From a phage, in the NCBI GenBank assembly GCA_017686895.1, contig GCA_017686895.1_4521.1: DNA of 64,000 nt, one strand, 5' to 3'. The notes below the pieces were generated by a model, which saw only the letters and a list, made by a program, of their open reading frames with translations, was not told where the DNA came from and searched no databases. Shown here in pieces: positions 11,649 through 42,301 of this stretch (position 1 is the first letter of the stretch; every line of letters starts with the position of its first letter). A program made the position numbers and the translations under genes.

Positions 11649-14360
11649 ATGAAAGAATTTTACTTAACGGTTGAACAGATTGGTGATTCAATTTTTGAAC
11701 GTTACATCGATTCTAATGGCCGTGAACGTACTCGTGAAGTAGAATATAAACCATCACTGTTTGCTCATTGTCCAGAAAGTCAGGCTACGAAATATTTCGA
11801 TATCTACGGTAAGCCGTGTACTCGTAAGTTGTTCGCTAATATGCGTGATGCCTCCCAATGGATTAAACGCATGGAAGATATCGGACTTGAAGCACTTGGC
11901 ATGGACGATTTCAAATTGGCGTATTTGTCTGACACTTATAACTATGAAATCAAATACGACCATACAAAAATTCGTGTGGCTAACTTCGACATCGAAGTAA
12001 CATCTCCGGATGGGTTCCCTGAGCCGTCACAAGCAAAACATCCAATTGATGCTATCACCCATTATGACTCAATTGATGACAGGTTCTACGTATTTGATCT
12101 ATTGAATTCTCCATATGGTAATGTAGAAGAATGGTCTATTGAAATCGCTGCTAAGCTTCAAGAACAAGGTGGTGATGAAGTTCCATCTGAAATTATCGAT
12201 AAAATCATTTATATGCCATTCGATAATGAAAAAGAATTGTTGATGGAATATCTCAACTTCTGGCAACAGAAAACTCCTGTCATTTTGACTGGATGGAACG
12301 TTGAGTCATTTGATATTCCATATGTGTATAACCGAATCAAGAATATTTTTGGCGAATCTACTGCGAAACGTTTATCACCACATCGTAAAACTCGTGTTAA
12401 AGTTATCGAAAACATGTATGGTTCTCGTGAAATCATTACATTGTTCGGTATCTCTGTTCTTGATTATATCGACCTTTACAAAAAATTCTCTTTCACAAAC
12501 CAACCGTCGTATTCTCTGGATTACATTTCAGAATTTGAATTGAATGTCGGTAAACTGAAATATGACGGTCCTATTTCTAAACTTCGTGAAAGTAATCACC
12601 AACGATATATTTCTTATAACATTATCGACGTGTATCGTGTATTGCAAATTGATGCTAAACGCCAGTTCATCAACTTGAGTTTGGACATGGGTTATTATGC
12701 TAAGATACAGATTCAATCTGTGTTTAGCCCAATTAAAACATGGGATGCTATTATTTTTAATAGCCTTAAAGAGCAGAACAAGGTGATTCCACAAGGTCGT
12801 TCTCACCCGGTTCAACCTTATCCTGGCGCTTTTGTTAAGGAACCTATTCCAAATCGATACAAATATGTAATGAGTTTCGACCTTACATCTCTGTATCCAA
12901 GTATTATTCGCCAAGTGAATATTAGCCCAGAAACAATAGCAGGAACGTTTAAAGTAGCTCCATTGCATGATTATATTAACGCAATCGCTGAACGTCCTTC
13001 AGATGTGTACAGTTGCTCTCCTAACGGCATGATGTATTATAAAGACCGTGACGGTGTAGTTCCAACCGAAATCACCAAGGTCTTTAATCAACGTAAAGAA
13101 CATAAAGGTTATATGCTTGCTGCTCAACGTAACGGTGAAATAATTAAAGAGGCATTGCATAATCCTAATCTTTCTGTTGATGAACCATTAGATGTTGATT
13201 ATCGTTTCGACTTCACTGACGAGATTAAAGAAAAGATTAAAAAGTTGTCTGCTAAATCTCTTAATGAAATGTTGTTTAGAGCTCAACGTACTGAAGTTGC
13301 AGGTATGACTGCCCAAATTAACCGTAAATTGCTCATCAACTCGCTTTATGGTGCACTTGGCAACGTTTGGTTCCGTTATTACGATTTGCGTAATGCTACT
13401 GCAATCACAACATTTGGTCAAATGGCTTTACAATGGATTGAACGTAAAGTTAATGAATATCTGAATGAAGTTTGTGGTACAGAAGGTGAAGCTTTCGTTC
13501 TTTATGGTGATACAGACTCTATTTACGTATCTGCTGATAAAATTATCGATAAGGTTGGTGAATCTAAATTCCGTGATACCAACCATTGGGTAGACTTCTT
13601 AGATAAGTTCGCACGTGAACGTATGGAACCAGCTATTGATAAAGGTTTCCGTGAAATGTGTGAATACATGAACAATAAACAACACTTAATGTTCATGGAC
13701 CGAGAAGCTATCGCTGGTCCTCCGCTTGGTTCTAAAGGTATTGGTGGATTCTGGACTGGTAAGAAACGTTATGCATTAAACGTGTGGGATATGGAAGGAA
13801 CTAGATACGCTGAGCCTAAACTCAAAATCATGGGTCTAGAGACTCAGAAATCTTCGACCCCTAAAGCAGTACAGAAAGCTCTTAAAGAATGTATTCGTCG
13901 TATGCTTCAAGAAGGTGAAGAATCATTACAAGAATATTTTAAAGAGTTTGAAAAAGAATTCCGTCAATTGAATTATATTAGCATCGCGTCGGTATCTTCT
14001 GCGAATAACATTGCTAAATATGATGTAGGTGGATTCCCTGGTCCTAAATGTCCGTTCCATATTCGTGGAATTCTGACATATAACCGAGCTATCAAAGGTA
14101 ATATTGATGCTCCACAAGTTGTAGAAGGTGAAAAAGTATATGTTCTGCCTTTACGTGAAGGAAACCCATTCGGTGATAAATGTATCGCATGGCCTTCTGG
14201 TACTGAAATCACAGATTTAATTAAAGACGACGTACTTCATTGGATGGACTACACTGTTCTCCTTGAGAAGACATTTATTAAACCACTTGAAGGATTCACA
14301 TCAGCAGCGAAACTCGATTACGAGAAGAAAGCATCTCTGTTCGATATGTTCGATTTTTGA
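11649..14360 (+). CDS. 43: DNA polymerase gp43 (family B)
   Basis: MKEFYLTVEQIGDSIFERYIDSNGRERTREVEY matches T4 gp43; exo motif FDIE and pol motif YGDTDS present; 903 aa, uninterrupted. Confidence 0.95.
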   Translation: MKEFYLTVEQIGDSIFERYIDSNGRERTREVEYKPSLFAHCPESQATKYFDIYGKPCTRKLFANMRDASQWIKRMEDIGLEALGMDDFKLAYLSDTYNYEIKYDHTKIRVANFDIEVTSPDGFPEPSQAKHPIDAITHYDSIDDRFYVFDLLNSPYGNVEEWSIEIAAKLQEQGGDEVPSEIIDKIIYMPFDNEKELLMEYLNFWQQKTPVILTGWNVESFDIPYVYNRIKNIFGESTAKRLSPHRKTRVKVIENMYGSREIITLFGISVLDYIDLYKKFSFTNQPSYSLDYISEFELNVGKLKYDGPISKLRESNHQRYISYNIIDVYRVLQIDAKRQFINLSLDMGYYAKIQIQSVFSPIKTWDAIIFNSLKEQNKVIPQGRSHPVQPYPGAFVKEPIPNRYKYVMSFDLTSLYPSIIRQVNISPETIAGTFKVAPLHDYINAIAERPSDVYSCSPNGMMYYKDRDGVVPTEITKVFNQRKEHKGYMLAAQRNGEIIKEALHNPNLSVDEPLDVDYRFDFTDEIKEKIKKLSAKSLNEMLFRAQRTEVAGMTAQINRKLLINSLYGALGNVWFRYYDLRNATAITTFGQMALQWIERKVNEYLNEVCGTEGEAFVLYGDTDSIYVSADKIIDKVGESKFRDTNHWVDFLDKFARERMEPAIDKGFREMCEYMNNKQHLMFMDREAIAGPPLGSKGIGGFWTGKKRYALNVWDMEGTRYAEPKLKIMGLETQKSSTPKAVQKALKECIRRMLQEGEESLQEYFKEFEKEFRQLNYISIASVSSANNIAKYDVGGFPGPKCPFHIRGILTYNRAIKGNIDAPQVVEGEKVYVLPLREGNPFGDKCIAWPSGTEITDLIKDDVLHWMDYTVLLEKTFIKPLEGFTSAAKLDYEKKASLFDMFDF

Positions 14361-14400: not shown

Positions 14401-15036
14401 ATGAAAACTACACCAATCACTATCGCTATTGACGCAATCGTAAAACAAGCTTCTTCTTTGGCTACTATGGCCAAAGTAATTAGTCAAAACCCTGCTCGTT
14501 ATAATGCTATTCTAGAAACTCTTCGACGCCCTGGACTGAGTAATTATGAAAGCCGAGTAATTATTACAGGTGTTGGTAAGAACGCTAATATCGCAACTAA
14601 AGCTTCCGAGACTTTTGCTTCACTAGGTATTCCTAGCATGTATTTGAACACCGGGCATTATTCTCATGGCGACGCAGGGTTTATTGCACCTAATGATGTA
14701 TTAGTTCACATCAGTCGTTCTGGTAAGACTGAAGAAATGATAGGTGTTGCTAAACATCTTCGTATGATTCGTCCTCAGGTTAAACAGATTCTGTTACATT
14801 GTAACCCTGACATTCCGCAAGAATACGAAGCTCTTTTTGATTATACGTTCTGTACAGGCATCGCGGTAGAGGTTGATGAGAATTCTCTGGCTCCGACCAT
14901 GTCCACTACATTGTTGTTAGCGCTTATCGATACGTTTGCTATCAACCTTTCGTCTGAACGTGGATTTACCTCTAATGACTTCCTTAAGTTCCACCCTGGT
15001 GGTGCACTAGGTGCCATGTTACGAGGCGAACAATGA
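14401..15036 (+). CDS. SIS-domain sugar-phosphate isomerase, arabinose-5-phosphate isomerase (KdsD/GutQ)-like
   Basis: Motifs ETFASLGIP, HGDAGF, ISRSGKT resemble KdsD SIS domain; no CBS domains. Confidence 0.7.
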   Translation: MKTTPITIAIDAIVKQASSLATMAKVISQNPARYNAILETLRRPGLSNYESRVIITGVGKNANIATKASETFASLGIPSMYLNTGHYSHGDAGFIAPNDVLVHISRSGKTEEMIGVAKHLRMIRPQVKQILLHCNPDIPQEYEALFDYTFCTGIAVEVDENSLAPTMSTTLLLALIDTFAINLSSERGFTSNDFLKFHPGGALGAMLRGEQ

Positions 15037-15176
15037 AAGCAATAACAATAGGACTTTTACTATTGATGCTTGTCATGACTATCTACTGGAGCTTAACGGC
15101 TCCAGTAATGATTCCGACTCTTATAATCGGATGGATTATGATTGGACTACAAACAAAGTATGAATGCTTTAACTAG
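15033..15176 (+). CDS. small hydrophobic membrane peptide
   Basis: 47-aa ORF hand-translated (MKAITIGLLLLMLVMTIYW...); ATGA overlap with upstream stop; below track cut-off. Confidence 0.25.
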   Translation: MKAITIGLLLLMLVMTIYWSLTAPVMIPTLIIGWIMIGLQTKYECFN

Positions 15177-15217
15177 AATAGTGTACAATACACCTACTTA
15201 CCAATGAGGACCACAAC

Positions 15218-16903
15218 ATGAAAAAAGCTGTTATTCTTGGTGCTGGACTGGCAACTCGTTTGTATCCAATAACGCACCATATTCCTAAGGTGCTTGTTAA
15301 CTATAAACAAGACACTATTCTGAGCAATTTGTATACAATTTATTCTGACCTTGGTGCAGATGAAATTATTGTAGTAGTTCATTCAAAATTTGTTGAAACT
15401 GTTCGAGCTTATTGTGAGCAAGAAGGGTTCAATGTGACTATTCGTACAGTTGATGAAGCGTATGGTTCTGCTTATGCTCTTGCTAAATTATACAAAGATT
15501 TAGATGGCCATAACGTAATTGTTAACTGGTGTGATATTATTCCTGATTTTGGTTCATGGTCTTGGAATGTTAACGCAATCTATGTTAAGGGTGATGAATG
15601 TCGATATAATTTCGATGGTGAAAATATCACTAACGTAGGTTCAACAGGCGGTAATGTTGTAGGAATTTATCAGTTCAAAGACTGGGAATTCTATATGGGT
15701 TCTACTGATGAGGAAATTCATGAATACTGCAAAGGGCGTGATTTCGTAGAATTCCTTTACGGCAGTGCATTCAATAAATCAGAGCTTATGAATCTAATTG
15801 ATTTAGGTGATATGCCTAAACTTGAAAAAGCTCATGAAGTTCGTGAACTTAATCGTAGTTTTAATGCAGTTGAAATTGGTGAAGAAACTGTAACTAAATT
15901 CGCATTAACCGAACAGGGACGAGCTCTTCAGAAAGATGAGATTTCGTGGTATCTTAAAGTGAAATCAGATTCAGTTCCTCAGTTAGTTTCTGTTAATGAA
16001 AATAACTTTGAAATGGAACGCATTAAAGGTAAGCCAGCATTTGAATATATTAAATCCAAATCAAGTCTTGCTCGTCCACAAATTGTTGATGCAATTTTAG
16101 ATGCACTGAAATTCAGCACAGACACTTATTTTGTAAGTCCTGAAACTGTTCGTCGTGATTTCACTAAAGAATTCTATACGAAAGTTATTGATCGTTGTGA
16201 AAGCATTCAACCATTGATTGATTCATTTGGTAAAATCACACATGTGAACTACACTAAGATTGGACGTCTGAAGCCAATGCTGAAACAAGCTTTAGAACAC
16301 CTTATTCGTTATCATAACCGTTCTCAGGGACAGTACTCTGTTATTCATGGTGACCCGAACTTCAGTAATACTATGATTACTGATAACGGCGAAGTCAAGT
16401 TTATCGACCCTCGTGGATATTTTGGCGAAACCAAGATTTACGGGCCAAAATTGTACGATGAAGCTAAAGTGCTTTATGCTGTTTCAGGTTATGATGAATT
16501 CAATGCTAATCCGACCTGGGGACAGTTTACTATTGATGAAACAACTTGTAATGTGACTATTAACATCAATCCATTAATTTACAAATATGGAAAGATGAGT
16601 TCGTTTAACGAGTATCATCATTTGGCGGTGGCAATTATCTGGATTGCATTAGGTGGTTATTTCAAGAATAATCCACTTAAAGCGGTAGCCGCATATTATA
16701 AAGGTATGGAACTTCTGACTAAGCAATTACGCAACATGGGCCGTGTACTTCAAGACGGCTCTATTAGTTATGACGTAGCAGAACCTGTAACGGCTACTCT
16801 GATTACAAAAAATCCTGGTAAATGGGTACTAACTGATAAAGAAACTGGTGTTTCCTATCGTCCAATCGGTGGCGATATCACTCATCAATGGGAACGAATC
16901 TAA
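15218..16903 (+). CDS. bifunctional sugar-1-phosphate nucleotidyltransferase / anomeric sugar kinase-like protein
   Basis: N-term AVILGAGLATRL...PK nucleotidyltransferase signature; C-term HGDPNFSN...IDPRG resembles APH/choline-kinase catalytic loop. Confidence 0.65.
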   Translation: MKKAVILGAGLATRLYPITHHIPKVLVNYKQDTILSNLYTIYSDLGADEIIVVVHSKFVETVRAYCEQEGFNVTIRTVDEAYGSAYALAKLYKDLDGHNVIVNWCDIIPDFGSWSWNVNAIYVKGDECRYNFDGENITNVGSTGGNVVGIYQFKDWEFYMGSTDEEIHEYCKGRDFVEFLYGSAFNKSELMNLIDLGDMPKLEKAHEVRELNRSFNAVEIGEETVTKFALTEQGRALQKDEISWYLKVKSDSVPQLVSVNENNFEMERIKGKPAFEYIKSKSSLARPQIVDAILDALKFSTDTYFVSPETVRRDFTKEFYTKVIDRCESIQPLIDSFGKITHVNYTKIGRLKPMLKQALEHLIRYHNRSQGQYSVIHGDPNFSNTMITDNGEVKFIDPRGYFGETKIYGPKLYDEAKVLYAVSGYDEFNANPTWGQFTIDETTCNVTININPLIYKYGKMSSFNEYHHLAVAIIWIALGGYFKNNPLKAVAAYYKGMELLTKQLRNMGRVLQDGSISYDVAEPVTATLITKNPGKWVLTDKETGVSYRPIGGDITHQWERI

Positions 16904-17289
16904 TGCACCGTGTAGAAAACATGCTTAATCTTTGTTTTGATGTCGATGATTGTATAACAGAGTGGAATAACAATCGTGATTACGTGAACTTCAAACCAGA
17001 CGTCGAAATGGTGTCTGCCATTAATGCCCTGTATGATGCAGGGCATACCATAACGCTTTACACTGCTCGTGGTATGAAGTCAGTAGGTCCTGGTCGTATA
17101 GCAATTGACATTCTCCCAAGTCTGATTCAGAACTTGGCAAACATTGGCTTGAAGTACCATAATTTGCTAACACATAAACCAGTATATGATTGGATTATCG
17201 ACGACAAAGCTATGCGTCCTGACGAATTCAAAGCTCTTATGAATAAAGGCGAATTCGAAACATTTAAATCATATAAACCGAATCTATAA
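16903..17289 (+). CDS. HAD-superfamily phosphatase-like protein
   Basis: FDVDDCIT (DxD motif I), LYTARG, WIIDDK; start taken at ATG overlapping upstream stop. Confidence 0.45.
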   Translation: MHRVENMLNLCFDVDDCITEWNNNRDYVNFKPDVEMVSAINALYDAGHTITLYTARGMKSVGPGRIAIDILPSLIQNLANIGLKYHNLLTHKPVYDWIIDDKAMRPDEFKALMNKGEFETFKSYKPNL

Positions 17290-17335
17290 TAATTTAAGTA
17301 AGACCTGCAAAAACCATCGCATCAATTAACGCGAG

Positions 17336-18505
17336 ATGCAAAAAATGAATACTTTTAAAATCGGAACGAATTTTGATTTAGCTCTTCTTGATAAAATCGT
17401 AGAGCTCAATAAAACCTATCCTAATAGCTTGATAAACGAAGTATATGGCTCTACAAGAGAAATGGCTTTTGTAGCAGCCAGACCTGATTTTAGGCTTCCT
17501 GACGTTGACAAAAAGATGTTAGAAGATTACGTTAAACGTTGTAACGAATTAGGTATTTGCTTTAACTATACACTCAACACGATAAATCCTGGTTCAAAAA
17601 GAGAACTAGTTGAGTGGAAGAAGAAAGCTATTCAGGATTATGTTCAGTATCTTTGGTCAATAGGCGTATGGCGTATTACTATCGCTAACCCTGTTGTTAT
17701 GGAAATTGTTCGTGAAGTCAATAAAGATATTGAGATTGAAGTTTCAACAATTCTACATGTCGATGCGGTAACTCAAATCAAATACTTACATGACCAATAT
17801 AACATCAAAAAGGTCTGTTGCGGAATTCATAAGAACCGTTCAGTTTCTTTCCTGAAGCGTGCAGCAGAGTTTTGCAATAAGAACAATATAATATTTGAAG
17901 TTCTTGTAAATGAGTTCTGTTCTAATGCTGGTAAAGGGTATACAACACATTGTAGTTATCGTGACTCTTGCTATATTTTCCATAGTACTGATGTTACAGC
18001 TGATGATGCTAAATCCTTAAATGGATATCCAATGCAACACTGCATTAAAGCTCGTGATACAGACCCATTTAACTGGTTGAGAACTCGTTTTGTTCGTCCT
18101 CAAGATTTGAAACTTTATAATGATATTGGTATCACTCAATTCAAAGTTTCAGGACGTACAGGTAGCACAGACTACATTTTGAAAGTTCTTGAAGCATACG
18201 CTTCTGAAAAGTTTGAAGGTAATTTGTTAGAACTGTGGAAGCCTTTAGAGACTATTTTCACTCTTGAAAATGAGACTGAGTTTTCACATACAGTAAATAT
18301 TGAAACCTCTTTGTTAGATGGCTTTTTAGAAAAAAGGTGGTTCAGACATCCAGATTTTGATTGTGCTAATGAAATCTGTGGGTCAACGTGTACATATTGT
18401 GAAAGGTATTATAAACGTCAATTATCTAAAAACGGGTTAGCAGAAAACTCCATATCTATTATTGATATAACTAACTCTGATGACGCTTTGAGGTACCCGG
18501 AATGA
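17336..18505 (+). CDS. peptidase-U32-family-like Fe-S protein
   Basis: N-terminal layout and Cys-rich EFCSNAGKGYTTHCSYRDSC segment resemble U32 family; C-terminal CxxxCxxC cluster. Confidence 0.5.
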   Translation: MQKMNTFKIGTNFDLALLDKIVELNKTYPNSLINEVYGSTREMAFVAARPDFRLPDVDKKMLEDYVKRCNELGICFNYTLNTINPGSKRELVEWKKKAIQDYVQYLWSIGVWRITIANPVVMEIVREVNKDIEIEVSTILHVDAVTQIKYLHDQYNIKKVCCGIHKNRSVSFLKRAAEFCNKNNIIFEVLVNEFCSNAGKGYTTHCSYRDSCYIFHSTDVTADDAKSLNGYPMQHCIKARDTDPFNWLRTRFVRPQDLKLYNDIGITQFKVSGRTGSTDYILKVLEAYASEKFEGNLLELWKPLETIFTLENETEFSHTVNIETSLLDGFLEKRWFRHPDFDCANEICGSTCTYCERYYKRQLSKNGLAENSISIIDITNSDDALRYPE

Positions 18506-18741
18506 TTTCTAGAAAAAGTTTTAATTATAAACTTAACGAAGAGATTTTGACTATGAAACTGAACACTAACGAACAAATTCTTAAAAAGGCCCTTATGGGC
18601 CTGTTTGAAACCAAAGCGGCTAAAGTGATTAAAGAACCTGTTCAATTGGAATACTACACTGATGCATTCCTTCATAGTGTTCTTGGAAGTATAGATTCTG
18701 AAGCTTTACGTTATATCAACATTGTCAAGAAATTCAAATAA
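18502..18741 (+). CDS. hypothetical protein
   Basis: 79-aa ORF, ATGA overlap. Confidence 0.3.
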   Translation: MISRKSFNYKLNEEILTMKLNTNEQILKKALMGLFETKAAKVIKEPVQLEYYTDAFLHSVLGSIDSEALRYINIVKKFK

Positions 18742-18764
18742 GCTTTATGAATTGAGTATATAAT
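18741..18764 (+). promoter_or_regulatory. middle-promoter-like element upstream of 42-like gene
   Basis: aGCTTTA box, 11-nt spacer, TATAAT. Confidence 0.35.
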
Positions 18765-18783
18765 AAATTGTATTGAGGTAAAT

Positions 18784-19500
18784 ATGGGAAAACATAACAC
18801 AATGAAATATATCAAAGCCGCAGATTTTCAAACCGCATTTAAAGCAGTCAATCGTGAAATTTTAGAAAACCCCGAATTCGTAACTGATTCTCGTATTGGA
18901 CGTTGTAATGAAATTGGGTCTATGACAGTAGTTGTTGACACTCCATCATCATTCAAAATGACCGACCCACGTATTAACCGCATCTCTTATGAATATGCCG
19001 AAGACTTCTGGAAGTTTATGATTTCTGGTGGTACCAACGCAGAAGAAGCGTTTAAGGCATATCCTAATGTCGCTAAATTTATTTCTAAACCAAAATCAGA
19101 TGTTTTGCCGGCGAACTTCAACACTTTCTATGGTCCTCGCATTGCGGCCCAATTACCAACTCTTCTAAAAGAACTTAAAGAAAAACCTAACTCTCGAAGA
19201 GTTGTGTTCCAAATTCTAGAAAGTTCTGATCAGGCTTTGCTTGATTCGGACGAAACACTTGAATATCCATGTACTGACTCAGTAACTTATTATATTCGTG
19301 ATGGTAAGCTTTATACCCACTGTCATATGCGTTCTCAGAACTGTGCTGTTGTTATGCAGTTGGATTTTTATCTCCAAGGAAAATTACTTCATTATATCGC
19401 TAACGAATGCGGTGTAGAAGTTGGTGATTATACTCATACCATGGTAAGTGCCCATGTGTTTGAACGTGATTTTGATTATGTTAAAGGATTCCTTGACTAA
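18784..19500 (+). CDS. thymidylate-synthase-family pyrimidine hydroxymethylase (gene 42-like dCMP hydroxymethylase)
   Basis: PCTDSV and HCHMRSQN resemble TS-family catalytic Cys and (Q/M)RS motifs; position and dCTPase at 29023 support hmC synthesis; divergent from T4 gp42. Confidence 0.65.
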   Translation: MGKHNTMKYIKAADFQTAFKAVNREILENPEFVTDSRIGRCNEIGSMTVVVDTPSSFKMTDPRINRISYEYAEDFWKFMISGGTNAEEAFKAYPNVAKFISKPKSDVLPANFNTFYGPRIAAQLPTLLKELKEKPNSRRVVFQILESSDQALLDSDETLEYPCTDSVTYYIRDGKLYTHCHMRSQNCAVVMQLDFYLQGKLLHYIANECGVEVGDYTHTMVSAHVFERDFDYVKGFLD

Positions 19501-20399
19501 TGGCTATTTTCCGCGTACCAATCTTGAGTATGCGGTCTTATGAAACTGGACAGTATGCTATCCTTAAGGATGGCAACTTCCAACTTCATTTGCACCGTGC
19601 TAATCCAGGTGATGTGATTACATATCCACGTAATGCATCTGATATTAAAGAATGCGAACGTCTTTTCCCAGAATTTAAGTTTGTTCCATTATGGTATAAA
19701 GATAACGCGTATAACACTCGTAAATATTTCTGGTCTGAAAATGAATTTGTGGTTGATTCATTAATTGCTTATTATGATTGTGATTTTCTAATCACAGATA
19801 TCACCGGATATGACGGCGCTTTTGATGTGGAATTCAATTTCAATATCACTGCAGACCCTAATAAACCACGTTTTTATATTGACGAATTCTTAAAAACTGA
19901 TATGTTGTCGGTTAATCGTTCACTTCAAACTACTGTGTTGAATGAACGTCAAAAAGAAGTGCTGGTTAACGCAGGTGCAGATGGTAATAAGATTATCGTA
20001 ACGCAGAAAGTTATACGTCCTTCCATCATGCAGCGTCTTGTAGGTGATTTGGCTCCTATTCATCTAGATGGTATTTTTCATCCATTTCGAATTAGTGACC
20101 CGTGCTATCGTTTTGAACAAGTGGTTGAATGTGCAATTCAATTAGGCCAACCGCTTTATATAACCGATCCAAATAATAGCTTCGACAGAAATAAGTATCC
20201 TGAAGAAGCATTGATTCGAATTTTTAAACCAACTAAAACTGAGTACTATCAAATTCTTAAAGGACGTCCGAAGATTCAATATTTCGAAAATCCTGAAGAA
20301 GTATTCCATCCAGGTCTTGGTGAGTTCATCTACTTTAATGCTTTAATTTCTTCGCCGTATAATATACCTAAATATGAAGATGTCGTAATCGAGGAATAA
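19500..20399 (+). CDS. hypothetical protein at the T4 beta-gt position
   Basis: 299-aa ORF between 42-like and uvsX; no recognisable motif. Confidence 0.45.
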   Translation: MAIFRVPILSMRSYETGQYAILKDGNFQLHLHRANPGDVITYPRNASDIKECERLFPEFKFVPLWYKDNAYNTRKYFWSENEFVVDSLIAYYDCDFLITDITGYDGAFDVEFNFNITADPNKPRFYIDEFLKTDMLSVNRSLQTTVLNERQKEVLVNAGADGNKIIVTQKVIRPSIMQRLVGDLAPIHLDGIFHPFRISDPCYRFEQVVECAIQLGQPLYITDPNNSFDRNKYPEEALIRIFKPTKTEYYQILKGRPKIQYFENPEEVFHPGLGEFIYFNALISSPYNIPKYEDVVIEE

Positions 20400-20400
20400 A

Positions 20401-20949
20401 ATGGCTAAAATTATTTTAGTAGATGGCCCGGATAATGCTGGTAAAACAACTTTCATTAATGACATAATGGAAATTAGTGAAAGATATGTAAAGATTGATT
20501 TCCCTAAACGAACAGTTGATGGACGTTTCGATGTTAAGTCTCGAAATGAAGTTGGCTGTTTCGAAACTATGTTGAATTATTTAGACCCTACTAAGATTTA
20601 TCTATTAGACCGTGGATATATTAGTAACTGGGTTTATGGACGTATTCGACAAGATGCGGACTCGGTTCTTGACGTTTATGAACAGGATTATGTTCGTCTT
20701 TGCCAAAACCATGATGTGTTCACAATTATTTTAACACGTAACGAAATGACTGAAAGTTTTGAAGACGACCTTATTACTTTGTCTTCATTCGGTTTTAATA
20801 CAGTAATTTCACATTTTGAAGAGTTTGCAATTCATAACGAAATCCAAACGTATCAATTACTTAATCATGATGGTGCTAACAAAGTTATAGGATTTAATGC
20901 AAGCGAACGTAATAATTTGATTACAGAAATCATCAAATGGGCTCGTTAA
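20401..20949 (+). CDS. P-loop nucleoside/nucleotide kinase-like protein
   Basis: Walker A GPDNAGKTT and LDRGY motif resemble thymidylate/dNMP kinase fold. Confidence 0.5.
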   Translation: MAKIILVDGPDNAGKTTFINDIMEISERYVKIDFPKRTVDGRFDVKSRNEVGCFETMLNYLDPTKIYLLDRGYISNWVYGRIRQDADSVLDVYEQDYVRLCQNHDVFTIILTRNEMTESFEDDLITLSSFGFNTVISHFEEFAIHNEIQTYQLLNHDGANKVIGFNASERNNLITEIIKWAR

Positions 20950-21047: not shown

Positions 21048-22220
21048 ATGTCTGATTTAAAATCTCGTCTGATTAAAGCTTCTACTTCTAAAATGACTGC
21101 AGACTTGACTAAGTCTAAGCTGTTTAATAATCGTGATGAAGTCCCTACTCGTATTCCAATGTTGAATATTGCACTAGGTGGTGCACTGAATGCAGGGTTG
21201 CAATCAGGCTTAACTATTTTTGCTGCTCCTTCTAAACATTTTAAAACGTTGTTTGGGCTGACCATGGTTGCAGCATATATGAAGAAATATAAAGATGCAA
21301 TCTGTTTGTTTTATGACTCAGAATTCGGTGCTTCAGAATCTTACTTCCGTTCGATGGGTGTTGATTTAGACCGTGTAGTTCATACTCCGATTCAATCCGT
21401 CGAACAACTTAAAGTTGATATGACTAATCAGCTTGACGCGATTGAACGCGGCGATAAAGTTATTATCTTTATCGATTCAATCGGTAATACTGCATCTAAG
21501 AAAGAAACCGAAGATGCGTTGAACGAGAAAGTTGTAGGTGATATGTCTCGTGCTAAGGCACTTAAATCTCTTTTCCGTATTGTGACTCCTTATCTGACTA
21601 TTAAAGATATTCCGTGTGTTGCAATTAACCATACTGCAATGGAAATTGGCGGATTGTATCCTAAAGAGATTATGGGCGGTGGTACAGGTATTCTTTATTC
21701 CGCCAACACGGTATTTTTTATCTCTAAACGTCAGGTTAAAGAAGGTACAGAATTGACCGGTTATGACTTCACGTTGAAAGCAGAAAAATCTCGTACAGTT
21801 AAAGAGAAATCTACTTTCCCGATCACGGTTAATTTCGACGGTGGTATCGACCCATTCAGTGGCTTGTTAGAAATGGCAACTGAAATCGGTTTTGTGGTTA
21901 AGCCTAAAGCTGGTTGGTATGCTCGCGAATTCCTTGACGAAGAAACAGGTGAAATGATTCGTGAAGAAAAATCATGGCGTGCTAAAGCTACTGATTGTGT
22001 AGAATTCTGGGGACCTTTGTTTAAACATAAGCCTTTCCGTGACGCAATTGAAACTAAATATAAACTAGGTGCTATCTCTTCTATTAAAGAAGTTGATGAC
22101 GCTGTTAACGACCTTATTAATTGCAAAGCAACAACTAAAGTTCCGGTTAAAACTTCTAATGCTCCGTCTGCAGCAGATATAGAAAACGACCTTGACGAAA
22201 TGGAAGATTTCGATGAATAA
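21048..22220 (+). CDS. uvsX: recombinase UvsX (RecA-like)
   Basis: MSDLKSRLIKASTSKMTADL matches T4 UvsX as recalled; 390 aa. Confidence 0.93.
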   Translation: MSDLKSRLIKASTSKMTADLTKSKLFNNRDEVPTRIPMLNIALGGALNAGLQSGLTIFAAPSKHFKTLFGLTMVAAYMKKYKDAICLFYDSEFGASESYFRSMGVDLDRVVHTPIQSVEQLKVDMTNQLDAIERGDKVIIFIDSIGNTASKKETEDALNEKVVGDMSRAKALKSLFRIVTPYLTIKDIPCVAINHTAMEIGGLYPKEIMGGGTGILYSANTVFFISKRQVKEGTELTGYDFTLKAEKSRTVKEKSTFPITVNFDGGIDPFSGLLEMATEIGFVVKPKAGWYAREFLDEETGEMIREEKSWRAKATDCVEFWGPLFKHKPFRDAIETKYKLGAISSIKEVDDAVNDLINCKATTKVPVKTSNAPSAADIENDLDEMEDFDE

Positions 22221-25304: not shown

Positions 25305-25673
25305 ATGAAAAAATTAATCGCTTTAGCAATGGTATTTGGATTAACCGGATGTGGTGCCCATGGCTTTATCCCTAATAACGTCGGCCAATTGATTTACAAT
25401 CCGAATGTTAAACAGTACGACCAACCTAAAGTTGAAGTGGAAGACCCGGTTACTGTAGGTAATCGAATGATTCAAGCTGATGCCCATGCTCAACGTTATC
25501 GTGACTCTGATACCGTAGCATTGTCAAAAGAACAACGCGTTAAAGAACATTGTCTACAGGCTACTGAAATCGCATTCATTCGCTATGTTGAAACAACTGG
25601 TAAAGAGCCTACCCAGAAACAAATCGCGAATAACTACGTCCAGTGTATTGAACGTTTAAACAAATTTAATTAA
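25305..25673 (+). CDS. putative lipoprotein
   Basis: Signal peptide plus lipobox MKKLIALAMVFGLTGC. Confidence 0.5.
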   Translation: MKKLIALAMVFGLTGCGAHGFIPNNVGQLIYNPNVKQYDQPKVEVEDPVTVGNRMIQADAHAQRYRDSDTVALSKEQRVKEHCLQATEIAFIRYVETTGKEPTQKQIANNYVQCIERLNKFN

Positions 25674-25676
25674 TTG

Positions 25677-25706
25677 GTTTACACCAAAGTTAAAATAAGA
25701 TACTAT
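25677..25706 (+). promoter_or_regulatory. early-promoter-like element
   Basis: GTTTAC -35, TACTAT -10 upstream of imm-like gene. Confidence 0.45.
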
Positions 25707-25734
25707 AAACATAACAAATCAAGAGGAAATTAAC

Positions 25735-25983
25735 ATGGAATTATTCGTAGCTAGTTCAGTAGCAGTTTTAATCGCAGGTATTGGTTCAATCATCATTTAC
25801 ATGTTGCCTTGGGTAATCGCACTTATTCGTGGCACAAAAAGCACAACAGCAATCTTCTTTGTATCTTTACTCTTTAACTGGACGATGGTTGGTTGGATTG
25901 GAACTTTAATTTGGTCTATCGTTGCCGAAAAGAAATCTGCTCAGCAGCCTCAACAAGTAATTATTATTCGCGAAAAAGAATAA
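25735..25983 (+). CDS. imm: superinfection immunity protein Imm-like membrane protein
   Basis: 82 aa, two predicted TM helices; LPWVIALIRG...LLFNWTMVGWIGTLIWS resembles Imm family. Confidence 0.6.
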   Translation: MELFVASSVAVLIAGIGSIIIYMLPWVIALIRGTKSTTAIFFVSLLFNWTMVGWIGTLIWSIVAEKKSAQQPQQVIIIREKE

Positions 25984-28934: not shown

Positions 28935-29022
28935 AATATCTCCTTAGTTACCTATTATTTATTACGCTTTATAAAATTAATGTTAGAATTAACTCTCTTA
29001 TACTGAATTGAAAGGAAAAATA

Positions 29023-29544
29023 ATGGCGCACTTTAATGAATGTTCACAACTTATTTCTGGTGTTGATAAAGCAGAAGAAGTTTATTTTAATGCTCTGATT
29101 CACGAAGATAAAGACCCACTTCAGGTAATGCTTGATATGCAGAAATCTTTACAGGTTCGTCTGGCAAATGACAAGCCTGAACATAACAAACATCCTGATG
29201 AATTGGCTACTGCTGGTGATGTTGTTGATTGGCTGCGTAATCAGAAAGATTATATTGATGATGAATTCCGTGAACTGTTGACTTCACTTGGTGGTATGAG
29301 CAATGGTGAAAAAGCCGCCAGCAGTGTATGGAAGCCTTGGAAAGCACAACATGCTGAATATCGAAATCGTCGTATCGATGAACTGTCTCCTGAAGACCAG
29401 CTTGAAATTAAATTTGAGATGATTGATATTCTTCATTTCGTTCTGAATATGTTCCAAGGTCTGGGTCTTTCTGCTGAAGAAATCTTTAAACTTTACTACT
29501 TGAAAAACCAACACAACTTTGAACGTCAGGATAATGGTTACTAA
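29023..29544 (+). CDS. 56: dCTP pyrophosphatase gp56
   Basis: MAHFNECSQLISGVDKA...DPLQVMLDMQ matches T4 gp56 as recalled; start at ATG 29023 rather than track TTG. Confidence 0.9.
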   Translation: MAHFNECSQLISGVDKAEEVYFNALIHEDKDPLQVMLDMQKSLQVRLANDKPEHNKHPDELATAGDVVDWLRNQKDYIDDEFRELLTSLGGMSNGEKAASSVWKPWKAQHAEYRNRRIDELSPEDQLEIKFEMIDILHFVLNMFQGLGLSAEEIFKLYYLKNQHNFERQDNGY

Positions 29545-35857: not shown

Positions 35858-35888
35858 GTTTACAACCAAGGATGGTTGGAGTATAATC
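35858..35888 (+). promoter_or_regulatory. early-promoter-like element
   Basis: GTTTAC -35, TATAAT -10. Confidence 0.45.
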
Positions 35889-35917
35889 TTTCTATCTTAA
35901 CCAAACAGGAAAACATT

Positions 35918-36412
35918 ATGAATATCAATACTACGGCTACTTACATCCTGAAAGATGAAAAACAAATCAACTGGTACGGTGCTTCAGTGCGAGCTTATGA
36001 AAAGTTTTGTGAAATTTTAGGTGCCACTCAAGGTAATAGTTTCACTATTGTTAACTTCATCAAACAAGTTGAAGGCCCTTGGTTATTCTTAGAAATTAAA
36101 AATTCATATGGTACAATTTCTACCACCGCCCTTCCAAGCACCGACTTTGAACTGTTGATTGAAGAAGTAGAACCCGTTAAAGATATCTGTATTGATATGG
36201 ATATCGCTTGTATGTACGGTACTCTGATTAAGCCTATTGAGCCTACTGATTTGTTGTGTAAATATGTTTCAATTCGACGCCCATTCGCTGGTCCAGTAAA
36301 TGGATGGGTGACTGATCAGTGGATTGAAGACGGTGTTGAACTTCTGAACGTTGTTCATGCAGGTGATTTTAGTGTAGTTCCACGTAGTGCTGTGGTTAAT
36401 ATCCTTAATTAA
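35918..36412 (+). CDS. hypothetical protein, paralog family member 1
   Basis: C-terminal GWVTDQWIEDGVELLNVVHAGDFSVVP shared with next two ORFs. Confidence 0.45.
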   Translation: MNINTTATYILKDEKQINWYGASVRAYEKFCEILGATQGNSFTIVNFIKQVEGPWLFLEIKNSYGTISTTALPSTDFELLIEEVEPVKDICIDMDIACMYGTLIKPIEPTDLLCKYVSIRRPFAGPVNGWVTDQWIEDGVELLNVVHAGDFSVVPRSAVVNILN

Positions 36413-36473: not shown

Positions 36474-36959
36474 ATGAATCTTGGTATTATTGGTGAAATC
36501 GTTCGCGTATCTAACAAATCTCGTTCTAAAGCAGCAGGAAAATTGGTCGAAGTTGTAAGTATTCAACTTAAAGAAGGCGTTAAAGATGAAGATTCTGAGG
36601 TAAAAGTTCGTATTATTCCTAGTCTTGGGTCGAGGGAAACTCAGTTCGCTTATGTTCGTGCAAAGTTCTTGGAAACTCCTGCGAGTAGTGCTTTTGCTTC
36701 AAGAGAAAAAGTTGAATCCACAGAGCCTAATGTACAGTTCAAATGGGCCTTGTGTAAAGGTGTTGAATTCCAGACTGATAAAGAATTTGACTTCATCGAT
36801 GAATATGGTTATCCAAGCACAACTGATACCATGTGTGGCTTCATTAGTGACCAATGGGTAGAAGATGGTGAAAAGTTATACAATATCGTATTCTTAGGTG
36901 ACTTCCGAGTTGTTAAAGAATCCGAAATCACTCGCTATGTGTCTCCTCGTAAAGCTTAA
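36474..36959 (+). CDS. hypothetical protein, paralog family member 2
   Basis: SRSKAAGKLVEVVS and GFISDQWVEDGEKLYNIVFLGDFRVV shared with neighbours. Confidence 0.5.
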   Translation: MNLGIIGEIVRVSNKSRSKAAGKLVEVVSIQLKEGVKDEDSEVKVRIIPSLGSRETQFAYVRAKFLETPASSAFASREKVESTEPNVQFKWALCKGVEFQTDKEFDFIDEYGYPSTTDTMCGFISDQWVEDGEKLYNIVFLGDFRVVKESEITRYVSPRKA

Positions 36960-41200: not shown

Positions 41201-42301
41201 ATGAAAGTTATGTTTATCCCATCTCGTGCAGTCCCATTTAATCCTGACCGTGTACAAGGTGGTCTTGAAGCAGTACATTTAAATGTGTTGAAATATCTTG
41301 TGTCCATCGGTGCTGATATTGATTATATCGGCTTTGATAATGACGTGTTTGGTGATTGGAAAGTTACACACCATCCTGTCGGCCATCTGACTAAATTCAG
41401 TCTAGGTATGAGTTATACTATGGCTCGTAAGATTGTTGAACTAGCCGGCATCCATGAATACGATTTTGTTGTTACTATGGAACCGACTAAACTAACCGTT
41501 CAGGCAATTAAAGACGCAGGTCTCTCTAAAGTTCATAAGAATTTTATGGCAACACCATTTGAACCGGTATCTCGTGGCATTGTTCAAATTTGGGACCAGA
41601 CTATTCAAATTCATAAGAATGGTGGTAAGAGTTATGCTCCTACTAAAGCCTTCCGTGAATTTGAACGCAAATATTGTTATATGACTTCAGGTCTGACTGA
41701 CAAAATTGATTATGATTATTGGCGAGCAAATCCGTTGTTTGAAGCCGAAGATTATCCGGTTATTTGTTTGAATGAGAAACCTGAAGTTCTTCCGGCGACT
41801 GATCTGATTATTAGTGCACAACGTTATGACACTAAAATGCGTCGTACTGATGTTGCTCTTGAAGCGATTAAAGCACTAGGCGAAAATGGTGTAGGATACT
41901 GTCCTAGTAAATGGGCGCCACCGGCTAAGTATCCTGTTATTATTGATGCTCCACATAGTGAAATCATGGAACGTCTTAAAACAGCTAAAGCACTTATCAA
42001 TACGTGTCCTGACACAGGTACGGTAGAGAATAGTTCTATTGAAGCCATCTCTAAAGGTGTCCCTGTAATCCAGTTAGTTTTTAAGGATTATCCTCATGCG
42101 ACATTTGAATACGACCCAGATACTGTGCGTGTAGAAATTGATTCCTCTACTCCTAAGAAAGAAGTAGTTGCGCTTTACACAAAAGCTGTATTAGAATTCA
42201 CTGACACATACGAAGCTCGAGTTAAACGTGCTGAAGCCGTATGGAAGAAGTATAACCGAGATGCAGTTGTTGCGATGTGGGATAAAATCTTCACAGCGTA
42301 A
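41201..42301 (+). CDS. GT-B fold glycosyltransferase (GT4-like), candidate DNA sugar transferase
   Basis: N-term MKVMFIPS...QGGLEAVHLNVLKYL and C-term TGTVENSSIEAISKGVPVI (E-x7-E motif). Confidence 0.55.
   Translation: MKVMFIPSRAVPFNPDRVQGGLEAVHLNVLKYLVSIGADIDYIGFDNDVFGDWKVTHHPVGHLTKFSLGMSYTMARKIVELAGIHEYDFVVTMEPTKLTVQAIKDAGLSKVHKNFMATPFEPVSRGIVQIWDQTIQIHKNGGKSYAPTKAFREFERKYCYMTSGLTDKIDYDYWRANPLFEAEDYPVICLNEKPEVLPATDLIISAQRYDTKMRRTDVALEAIKALGENGVGYCPSKWAPPAKYPVIIDAPHSEIMERLKTAKALINTCPDTGTVENSSIEAISKGVPVIQLVFKDYPHATFEYDPDTVRVEIDSSTPKKEVVALYTKAVLEFTDTYEARVKRAEAVWKKYNRDAVVAMWDKIFTA

Follow-up and report, generated by a model that had tools for sequence, protein, structure and literature searches.

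What is made by the 6.5-kb block of genes that lies between those for DNA polymerase and UvsX (positions 14401-20949) in a phage DNA of 64,000 nucleotides (nt; GenBank assembly GCA_017686895.1, contig GCA_017686895.1_4521.1), and what does a U32-family protein do among its products? This whole stretch, here called the window, is that of an RB69-like Mosigvirus, and the block is very probably the gene cluster by which RB69-type phages hypermodify their DNA with arabinosyl-5-hydroxycytosine (ara-5hoC). The cluster as such has already been published (Thomas 2018; Mahler 2025; He 2026; Lee 2026) and is hence not new. For the U32 protein, encoded at 17336-18505 on the + strand, we propose a function with slightly more belief than doubt: judged by its sequence relatives and genomic company, it would be a prephenate-dependent, O2-independent hydroxylase that acts at C5 of a pyrimidine deoxynucleotide, or possibly of DNA.

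The block holds nine open reading frames (ORFs), all on the + strand and separated by successive gaps of -4, 41, -1, 46, -4, 42, -1 and 1 nt, and is flanked by the genes for DNA polymerase (11649-14360) and UvsX (21048-22220). A preliminary description of the window had listed eight of these ORFs, which are indeed present on that strand with the coordinates and lengths it gave. The block shares 97.3% DNA identity with RB69 ORF045c-055c, the ORFs mapping one to one, and the proteins of phage HY126 are 96-100% identical to the products of the eight main ORFs, a ninth ORF of 79 amino acids (aa) being the exception. Altogether 154 phage records from RB69-like Mosigviruses and relatives match the block at 95-99% identity, 152 genomes cover at least 80% of it, and homologues of its proteins in other genera go down to 37-57% identity. 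Because the block is kept across phage records and has protein homologues in other genera, its ORFs are not a product of chance. The 561-aa and 299-aa ORFs are intact in the window; in the RB69 GenBank record either one is broken into two (053c/052c and 047c/046c), which published corrections ascribe to sequencing errors (Thomas 2018 for 053c+052c, later work for 047c/046c). The profile search finds no Pfam family for the 47-aa, 79-aa and 299-aa products. Annotation of the block in PQ572755.1 is inconsistent and in part mistaken: it calls the 79-aa ORF a 'P-loop NTP hydrolase', the 299-aa glycosyltransferase an 'RNA polymerase binding protein', the HAD phosphatase a 'phosphoheptose isomerase' and the thymidylate synthase homologue a 'dCMP hydroxymethylase'.

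In T4 the same slot reads 43, imm.1, imm, 42, beta-gt, segA, uvsX, so that imm, 42 and beta-gt do lie between 43 and uvsX as the preliminary description stated, together with imm.1 and segA. Homologues of T4 imm.1 and imm are displaced in the window to 25311-25980, downstream of gene 41. The same description gave T4 beta-gt as missing, and tblastn finds no match to it in the 64-kb window (E<0.01); RB69 likewise has no homologue of known glucosyltransferase genes (Thomas 2018). It was also right that a dCTPase gene (gene 56) is present, at 29008-29544 on the + strand. The gp56-type product matches Pfam dUTPase_2 at 1e-6, and its syntenic homologues in Marfa and Bas46 are annotated as dCTP pyrophosphatases.

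The identity of the modified base follows from the thymidylate synthase (TS) homologue encoded at 18784-19500 (+ strand, 238 aa; RB69 gp48, ORF048c). It matches Pfam Thymidylat_synt at 2e-15 with 57 bits (cut-off 24) and is 98.7% identical to RB69 gp48 and about 97% identical to the proteins of PDB entries 9IQC (a 238-aa chain), 9IR2 and 9IQU. When aligned with E. coli ThyA and T4 gp42, its residues C146, E143, N169 and D177 display the signature L143E/D169N/N177D, N177D being taken as the mark of specificity for deoxycytidine monophosphate (dCMP). RB69 gp48 makes 5-hydroxy-dCMP (5hodCMP) with oxygen taken from 18O2 and with loosely bound flavin mononucleotide (FMN), and D169N is the diagnostic residue (PMC13326640). 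By this signature the TS homologue is an FMN/O2-dependent 5-hydroxy-dCMP synthase, and the acceptor would therefore be 5-hydroxycytosine (5hoC). The preliminary description had instead named a dCMP hydroxymethylase, arabinosyl-hydroxymethylcytosine (hmC) in the DNA, as reported for RB69, and a donor made from free arabinose with a phosphatase acting before the kinase. Such a scheme was the published view in 2018, and the TS homologue does belong to the same superfamily as T4 gp42, but it can now hardly be upheld. T4 gp42 keeps D169 where the TS homologue has an Asn, and the two proteins are 24.8% identical; nuclear magnetic resonance (NMR) and mass spectrometry (MS) identify the RB69 modification as mono- and di-arabinosyl-5-hydroxycytosine with an ether link straight to C5 (PMC13326640), and the older assignment of hmC to RB69 is termed erroneous in another paper of 2026, so that for RB69 the scheme is already refuted and the literature corrected to 5-hydroxycytosine. 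The sugar half of the scheme is contradicted by the enzymes of HY126, which in the work of He 2026, as far as it is cited in PMC13326640, go through arabinose-1,5-bisphosphate.

Three genes of the block would build the sugar donor. The first, at 14401-15036 (+ strand, 211 aa; RB69 ORF055c, 96.7% identity), encodes a KdsD/GutQ-like arabinose-5-phosphate isomerase with a SIS domain. Its placing in the SIS family, proposed from the letters of the DNA, is borne out by profile searches (Pfam SIS 8e-10, 39 bits against a cut-off of 25; NCBIfam KpsF/GutQ 9e-32 and KdsD 4e-30; PHROG 5670 2e-116), and it is predicted to convert ribulose-5-phosphate to arabinose-5-phosphate. The isomerase gene is not present at the compared loci of Bp7, Thanatos-2, Proteus PM2 and Marfa; since these phages do without it, it is an optional booster and no core pathway gene, and they presumably use the KdsD/GutQ of their hosts.

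The second gene, at 15218-16903 (+ strand, 561 aa; RB69 ORF053c+052c joined), encodes the bifunctional AfhE-type enzyme, first described as a nucleotidyltransferase/kinase fusion. The nucleotidyltransferase half of that description stands on its own, as residues 3-99 match NTP_transferase at 37 bits (cut-off 21) and PDB 1jyk at 2.6e-5. For the kinase half there are sub-threshold matches to APH, fructosamine-kinase and EcKL profiles at residues 308-409, which counts against the assignment, yet the protein is 96.4% identical to its HY126 homologue and more than 99% identical to RB69 ORF053c/052c. HY126 AfhE is bifunctional, serving as arabinose-5-phosphate kinase as well as UDP-arabinose pyrophosphorylase, and AfhF of the same phage a phosphatase acting on the 1,5-bisphosphate (He 2026, as cited in PMC13326640). 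The AfhF-type HAD phosphatase of the window is encoded by the third gene at 16888-17289 (+ strand, 133 aa; RB69 ORF051c), the start of which is probably 16903, as RB69 annotates. It is HAD-IIIA-like and 100% identical to its HY126 homologue, and the earlier HAD-type call holds, with matches to the capsule-biosynthesis phosphatase family TIGR01689 of NCBIfam at 4e-13, under that family's own cut-off, and to PHROG 1238 at 5e-43. By analogy with these close relatives, the AfhE-type kinase domain would phosphorylate arabinose-5-phosphate to arabinofuranose-1,5-bisphosphate, the HAD phosphatase would strip off the 5-phosphate, and the N-terminal AfhE-type domain would join arabinose-1-phosphate and UTP into UDP-arabinofuranose. 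Of the donor route drawn in the preliminary description, the line from ribulose-5-phosphate through arabinose-5-phosphate to NDP-arabinose and DNA glycosylation thus survives; the free pentose and a phosphatase ahead of the kinase do not, the kinase coming first in HY126 (He 2026, as cited in PMC13326640). A likely UDP-arabinose route of RB69 had been assigned to this module when arabinose was found in RB69 DNA (Thomas 2018).

Transfer of the sugar is attributed to two enzymes. The 299-aa protein encoded at 19500-20399 (+ strand; RB69 ORF047c+046c joined), previously entered as unknown, finds nothing in a sequence search of the PDB. Its AlphaFold model (pLDDT 94.7) is matched by Foldseek to 3c4q (MshA), 9v0w, 6kih and 7qsg at TM 0.58-0.61, the matched folds including UDP-Glc:tetrahydrobiopterin glucosyltransferase and sucrose-phosphate synthase. 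On this model it appears to be a GT-B glycosyltransferase and is proposed as the first arabinosyltransferase on 5-hydroxycytosine, placing the first arabinose on the 5-OH. RB69 gp46:47 and gp3 are predicted arabinosyltransferases; against the role given to the 299-aa protein, the single glycosyltransferases were inactive in vitro on 5hoC DNA (PMC13326640). The second predicted arabinosyltransferase (366 aa; RB69 ORF003c, 98.9% identity) is encoded outside the block at 41201-42301 on the + strand, between the gene for the topoisomerase large subunit and rIIA. It matches PDB 9IQZ/9IR0 at 2.4e-250 and near-100% identity, 9IR0 being entitled 'phage HY126 glycosyltransferase with UDP', and this ORF003c-type enzyme is proposed to add the second arabinose. 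The last gene of the block, at 20401-20949 (+ strand, 182 aa; RB69 ORF045c, 99.5% identity), encodes a P-loop nucleotide kinase resembling thymidylate kinase, as had been called before (PHROG 761 'thymidylate kinase' 2e-45, with a weak dTMP-kinase P-loop match). This Tmk-like kinase presumably phosphorylates the modified deoxynucleoside monophosphate.

Taken together, and with these steps known from close relatives, the dCTPase would turn dCTP into dCMP and so remove dCTP, the TS homologue would hydroxylate dCMP at C5 with flavin and O2, and kinases, the Tmk-like one predicted among them, would take 5hodCMP to the triphosphate which the phage polymerase inserts instead of C. Virion DNA in which mono- or di-arabinosyl-5-hydroxycytosine replaces C has been demonstrated for RB69, Bas46, NP and HY126, and at 97% identity the virion DNA of the window phage can be expected to carry arabinosyl-5-hydroxycytosine in place of C as well. 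The RB69 genes ORF045c-055c and ORF003c and the 'afh' genes of HY126 are like the window gene for gene between gene 43 and uvsX, with the second glycosyltransferase by rIIA in both; there is no functional difference, and ORF049c is the most variable gene. The T4 glucosyl-hmC system (gp56, gp42, gp1, alpha-gt and beta-gt) shares the slot and also the logic, with a dCTPase, a TS-family enzyme that works on dCMP, kinases, and a hydroxyl that is glycosylated. In contrast to T4, which uses methylene-tetrahydrofolate to make C5-CH2OH, the window would make C5-OH with flavin and O2; its sugar is arabinofuranose and not glucose, so that the donor has to be built by three or four extra enzymes, and it has the additional U32 gene. 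Genes gp76-gp83 of Acinetobacter phage DLP3 share the SIS, AfhE-type, HAD, D169N TS, 299-aa-type glycosyltransferase and Tmk-like members in the same order at 46-69% identity, whereas DLP3 has two further glycosyltransferases in its cluster, no U32 gene and no 79-aa ORF.

The U32 protein (389 aa; RB69 ORF050c) is the member of the block that this pathway leaves over. Its assignment to a Fe-S-type U32 family, made in the preliminary description, holds (Pfam Peptidase_U32 7e-11, 42.2 bits against a cut-off of 22.4). A sequence search of the PDB returns nothing for it; its model (pLDDT 92.6) has the U32 protein 5d88 as best PDB fold match in Foldseek. Ten Cys residues are conserved among 121 homologues, nine of them invariantly and C180 in 98%; six lie in the core (C161, C180, C195, C206, C212 and C236), and the other four form a C-terminal CX4CX3CX2C motif. 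With RlhA, TrhP and UbiU/UbiV the phage protein has in common the U32 TIM-barrel and, it may be, also the conserved Glu and the 'C...CYIxH' type of Cys-rich motif, but it is 16-21% identical to them, and its presumed substrate is a deoxynucleotide or DNA and not RNA or quinone. In an hhalign comparison with RlhA (E=1.6e-5, probability 79%) E193, C206 and C212 pair with the essential E161, C169 and C176, inside a 'CYIxH' motif that the two share in this alignment. Pfam finds no Peptidase_U32_C or RlhA-type C-terminal domain, the invariant CX4CX3CX2C tail standing in its place. By these sequence features the phage U32 clade is a distinct subfamily and not an RlhA or TrhP orthologue.

Conservation sets the U32 protein apart from its neighbours. 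It is 79-89% identical to its counterparts in Thanatos-2, Proteus PM2, Klebsiella Marfa and Yersinia phiR1-RT; in the same comparison DNA polymerase reaches 65-70%, the TS homologue 71-82%, the AfhE-type protein 42-66% and the kinase 37-58%, which makes U32 the most conserved protein of the region between these phage genera. All 222 U32 matches in GenBank phages are at least 80% identical. More widely, the clade comprises about 486 clusters at 50% identity (E<=1e-30), so far almost solely on phage contigs.

Two characterised relatives suggest what such a protein might do. RlhA makes ho5C2501 in 23S rRNA and TrhP makes ho5U34 in tRNA, each requiring prephenate. Fe-S cluster biogenesis has been shown to be required for RlhA; TrhP is active in the absence of O2, and in E. 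coli the O2-dependent TrhO serves as its back-up. The idea of a hydroxylase arises because RlhA and TrhP are prephenate-needing factors of pyrimidine C5 hydroxylation, while the known phage hydroxylase needs O2. The U32 protein could then be a second hydroxylase, dependent on prephenate and Fe-S and independent of O2, which yields a 5-hydroxy-pyrimidine nucleotide without oxygen, and the U32 and TS enzymes together would let the phage modify its DNA in aerobic and anaerobic hosts alike. If true, the pair in enterobacterial T4-like phages would parallel NrdAB/NrdDG, TrhO/TrhP and UbiIHF/UbiUV.

The company that the U32 gene keeps outside the T4-like phages was surveyed at 37 phage loci beyond the Straboviridae, with U32 homologues 40-58% identical to that of the window and neighbours counted within 10 kb of U32. 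Families are named after the genes of the block, GT299 being that of the 299-aa GT-B protein and the AfhE-type and Tmk-like families being named likewise. A Tmk-like kinase occurs in 31 of the 37 loci and a GT299-type glycosyltransferase in 26; the AfhE-type gene is found in 17 and the SIS isomerase in 10. In five loci an iterated kinase profile picks up long GT299 ORFs (550-606 aa) as well, which may be fusions or reflect profile drift. A TS homologue accompanies U32 in a single locus (L037), where it bears the canonical ThyA signature L143/D169/N177, and an enzyme of the 5hodCMP-synthase type is found in none of the 37 within 10 kb of U32. Pfam counts over 149 neighbouring gene clusters are given as the top 25 families, a listing with which a single Thymidylat_synt match is compatible.

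Three types of operon recur. The first has primase, single-stranded DNA-binding protein, a MazG-like NTP pyrophosphatase, kinase, GT299, U32 and PolIII-alpha; the second GT299, SIS, AfhE, in some cases kinase and a fusion of DAHP synthase with a type II chorismate mutase (DAHPS-CM), HAD and U32; the third U32, in some cases DAHPS-CM, GT299, AfhE and HAD. The first type would mirror the T-even scheme (dCTPase, base-modifying enzyme, kinase, glycosyltransferase): U32 would take the slot of the hydroxylase, and the sugar-activation genes are absent. A compact operon of Tmk-like kinase, GT299 and U32 lies at around 7.5-11 kb in each of eight loci (L017, L018, L038, L042, L043, L048, L050 and L064). 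These contigs are from non-T4-like phages and have replication genes of the PolIII-alpha type and no TS homologue nearby; a TAGT-family glycosyltransferase is found in addition in L017 and L043, and a UDP-galactopyranose mutase in L017 at least. These compact operons suggest glycosylated bases of unknown kind. On phage contigs of very great length (up to 466 kb; L013:7447-8004, L015:8279-8704 and neighbours) the U32 homologue directly follows a dCMP deaminase and lies near a thymidylate kinase and a fusion of uracil-DNA glycosylase with PolIII-alpha; here a product derived from uracil (5-hydroxy-dUMP) is as conceivable as one derived from cytosine.

The DAHPS-CM fusion adjoins U32 or is one gene away from it in five loci, all on uncultivated phage contigs (L046:8411-9433, L047:9-971, L049:7302-8357, L051:8332-9387 and L060:11085-12203), with CM_2 matches at E values of 1e-9 to 2e-24. 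Among named proteins the closest to it are the Bacteroidota enzymes so called, at 43-46% identity, and the papers searched appear to hold no discussion of a phage-borne gene for prephenate supply. Its position by U32 counts in favour of hydroxylation because the product of chorismate mutase is prephenate, on which RlhA and TrhP depend; the DAHPS-CM neighbours in these five loci would thus point indirectly to a prephenate dependence of U32.

The distribution of the two enzymes among phages points the same way. TS without U32 is seen in Acinetobacter phages and Dhakaviruses, U32 without TS in many uncultivated phages, and both together in enterobacterial and Shewanella T4-like phages. U32 is absent from DLP3, which makes tri-arabinosyl 5hoC, and from the E. 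coli Dhakavirus Bp7. The AfhE-type gene occurs in 57 Acinetobacter phage records, none of which is among the 60 U32 matches listed, at most 3 being possible by the counts. Acinetobacter is a strict aerobe. A strict rule was considered by which U32 would go with facultatively anaerobic hosts and with no others; it fails on the E. coli Dhakaviruses, which are without U32. As the TS flavoenzyme and U32 behave as alternative solutions of the same step, a hydroxylase is the simplest explanation of U32. For the whole clade, the chances are evenly balanced that its members hydroxylate pyrimidine deoxynucleotides or DNA at C5, with prephenate and without O2, and that U32 makes the hydroxyl which GT299 glycosylates in many uncultivated phages, some of them seemingly Bacteroidota phages.

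Several points weigh against this interpretation, which draws on homology and genomic association throughout. Prephenate also feeds carboxy-SAM synthesis, and the chorismate mutase could serve another pathway. TS-type genes could lie beyond the 10-kb flank. In a MAFFT alignment the register differs, U32 E188 and C195 pairing with RlhA E161 and C169 and a Gly standing at the position of C176, where hhalign alone places a Cys. E. coli Dhakaviruses such as Bp7 manage without U32, so that a facultatively anaerobic host does not demand it, and the gene adjoins sugar-activation genes in many loci, where a role in sugar chemistry is possible. The literature consulted holds no tested or argued function for U32, and full-text searches on U32 in connection with phage and arabinosyl, hydroxycytosine or prephenate gave nothing relevant; He et al. 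2026 and Mahler et al. 2025 lie outside that search, and He et al. may assign one.

A place on the sugar side, for instance as a reductase or epimerase that shapes the arabinose donor, is unlikely but has points in its favour. The gene is labelled 'sugar or heterocycle reductase' in Table 1 of Lee et al. (PMC13326640) and 'putative enzyme involved in UDP-arabinose biosynthesis' in the Basel-collection annotation, a further label being 'homologs among peptidases', and U32 is near the AfhE-type genes in the 17 loci noted above, often adjoining the HAD phosphatase. At least eight loci, on the other hand, have kinase, GT299 and U32 and no AfhE, SIS or HAD gene within 10 kb, DLP3 achieves its tri-arabinosyl-5hoC without U32, and it is hard to see what the neighbouring chorismate mutase would do in pentose chemistry. 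We know of no characterised U32 protein that acts on sugars. The three-enzyme route from arabinose-5-phosphate to UDP-arabinofuranose is, moreover, already complete in the account of HY126 as cited in PMC13326640.

Very unlikely is a hydroxylase of host or phage RNA (tRNA wobble uridine or rRNA cytidine), whose gene would serve to reprogramme translation and merely be located in the block. The characterised U32 enzymes of nucleic acids do act on RNA, but the phage protein is without Peptidase_U32_C and the other C-terminal regions of TrhP and RlhA, has the CX4CX3CX2C tail of its own, and is consistently set between a DNA glycosyltransferase and a nucleotide kinase, by dCMP deaminase, dUTPase or MazG-type enzymes and DNA polymerase. 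A collagenase-like peptidase, the family name of PF01136 under which most GenBank records annotate the gene, scarcely merits consideration, as the characterised members cited are hydroxylation factors and the conserved Cys clusters and the context of nucleotide metabolism are unlike a protease.

Hydroxylation of a pyrimidine deoxynucleotide or DNA by U32 would have consequences well beyond the window phage, is specific and cheaply testable, and may not be new. Hosts among the gut bacteria can be expected to be often anoxic. If the proposal is true, an O2-independent route explains how the modification is kept up in anoxic gut hosts, and U32 adds a second, unrelated family to the few enzymes with which DNA hypermodification begins. 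Operons of kinase, GT299 and U32 would mark widespread phages with glycosylated DNA that searches for the TS signature have missed, and some phages would bring their own chorismate mutase to supply prephenate for the hydroxylation. Arabinosyl-5-hydroxycytosine guards phage DNA against many restriction enzymes, as shown for RB69 and DLP3; phage DNA modifications in general are reported to protect from CRISPR-Cas, and arabinosyl-5-hydroxycytosine is also a target for type IV systems. The block itself is found in many Mosigvirus isolates, some of them from collections oriented towards phage therapy.

Two small ORFs complete the block. The hydrophobic 47-aa ORF at 15033-15176 (+ strand; PHROG 3610) overlaps RB69 ORF054c and is 60% identical to a small ORF after imm in Bp7; it looks like a conserved T-even small ORF and not a pathway enzyme. 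The ninth ORF, which the preliminary description missed, lies at 18502-18741 (+ strand, 79 aa; RB69 ORF049c, PHROG 8601) and overlaps the stop of U32 by 4 nt. It is the least conserved of the block, at 88.6% identity to RB69 and 42% in Yersinia phiR1-RT, and in HY126 its first half alone finds a match (87.5%), where a 123-nt ORF is annotated. It was not detected in the other compared loci, including Thanatos-2, Proteus PM2 and Marfa, all of which have U32, and it is probably dispensable. A small ORF overlapping U32 in Thanatos-2 had raised the idea of U32 and the 79-aa ORF as a conserved two-gene module; this was rejected because the Thanatos ORF is not detectably homologous, the HY126 match is of half length, and PM2 and Marfa are without the 79-aa ORF.

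Elsewhere in the window, the 219-aa ORF at 26333-26992 matches Pfam AdfA (anti-DarT factor A; E=1e-120) over its full length; this anti-defence gene has no connection with the block. The adjoining ORFs at 35876-36412 and 36474-36959 match the MotB 'modifier of transcription' family, one at 7.5e-54 and one at 1.6e-8, and look like a tandem pair of paralogues.

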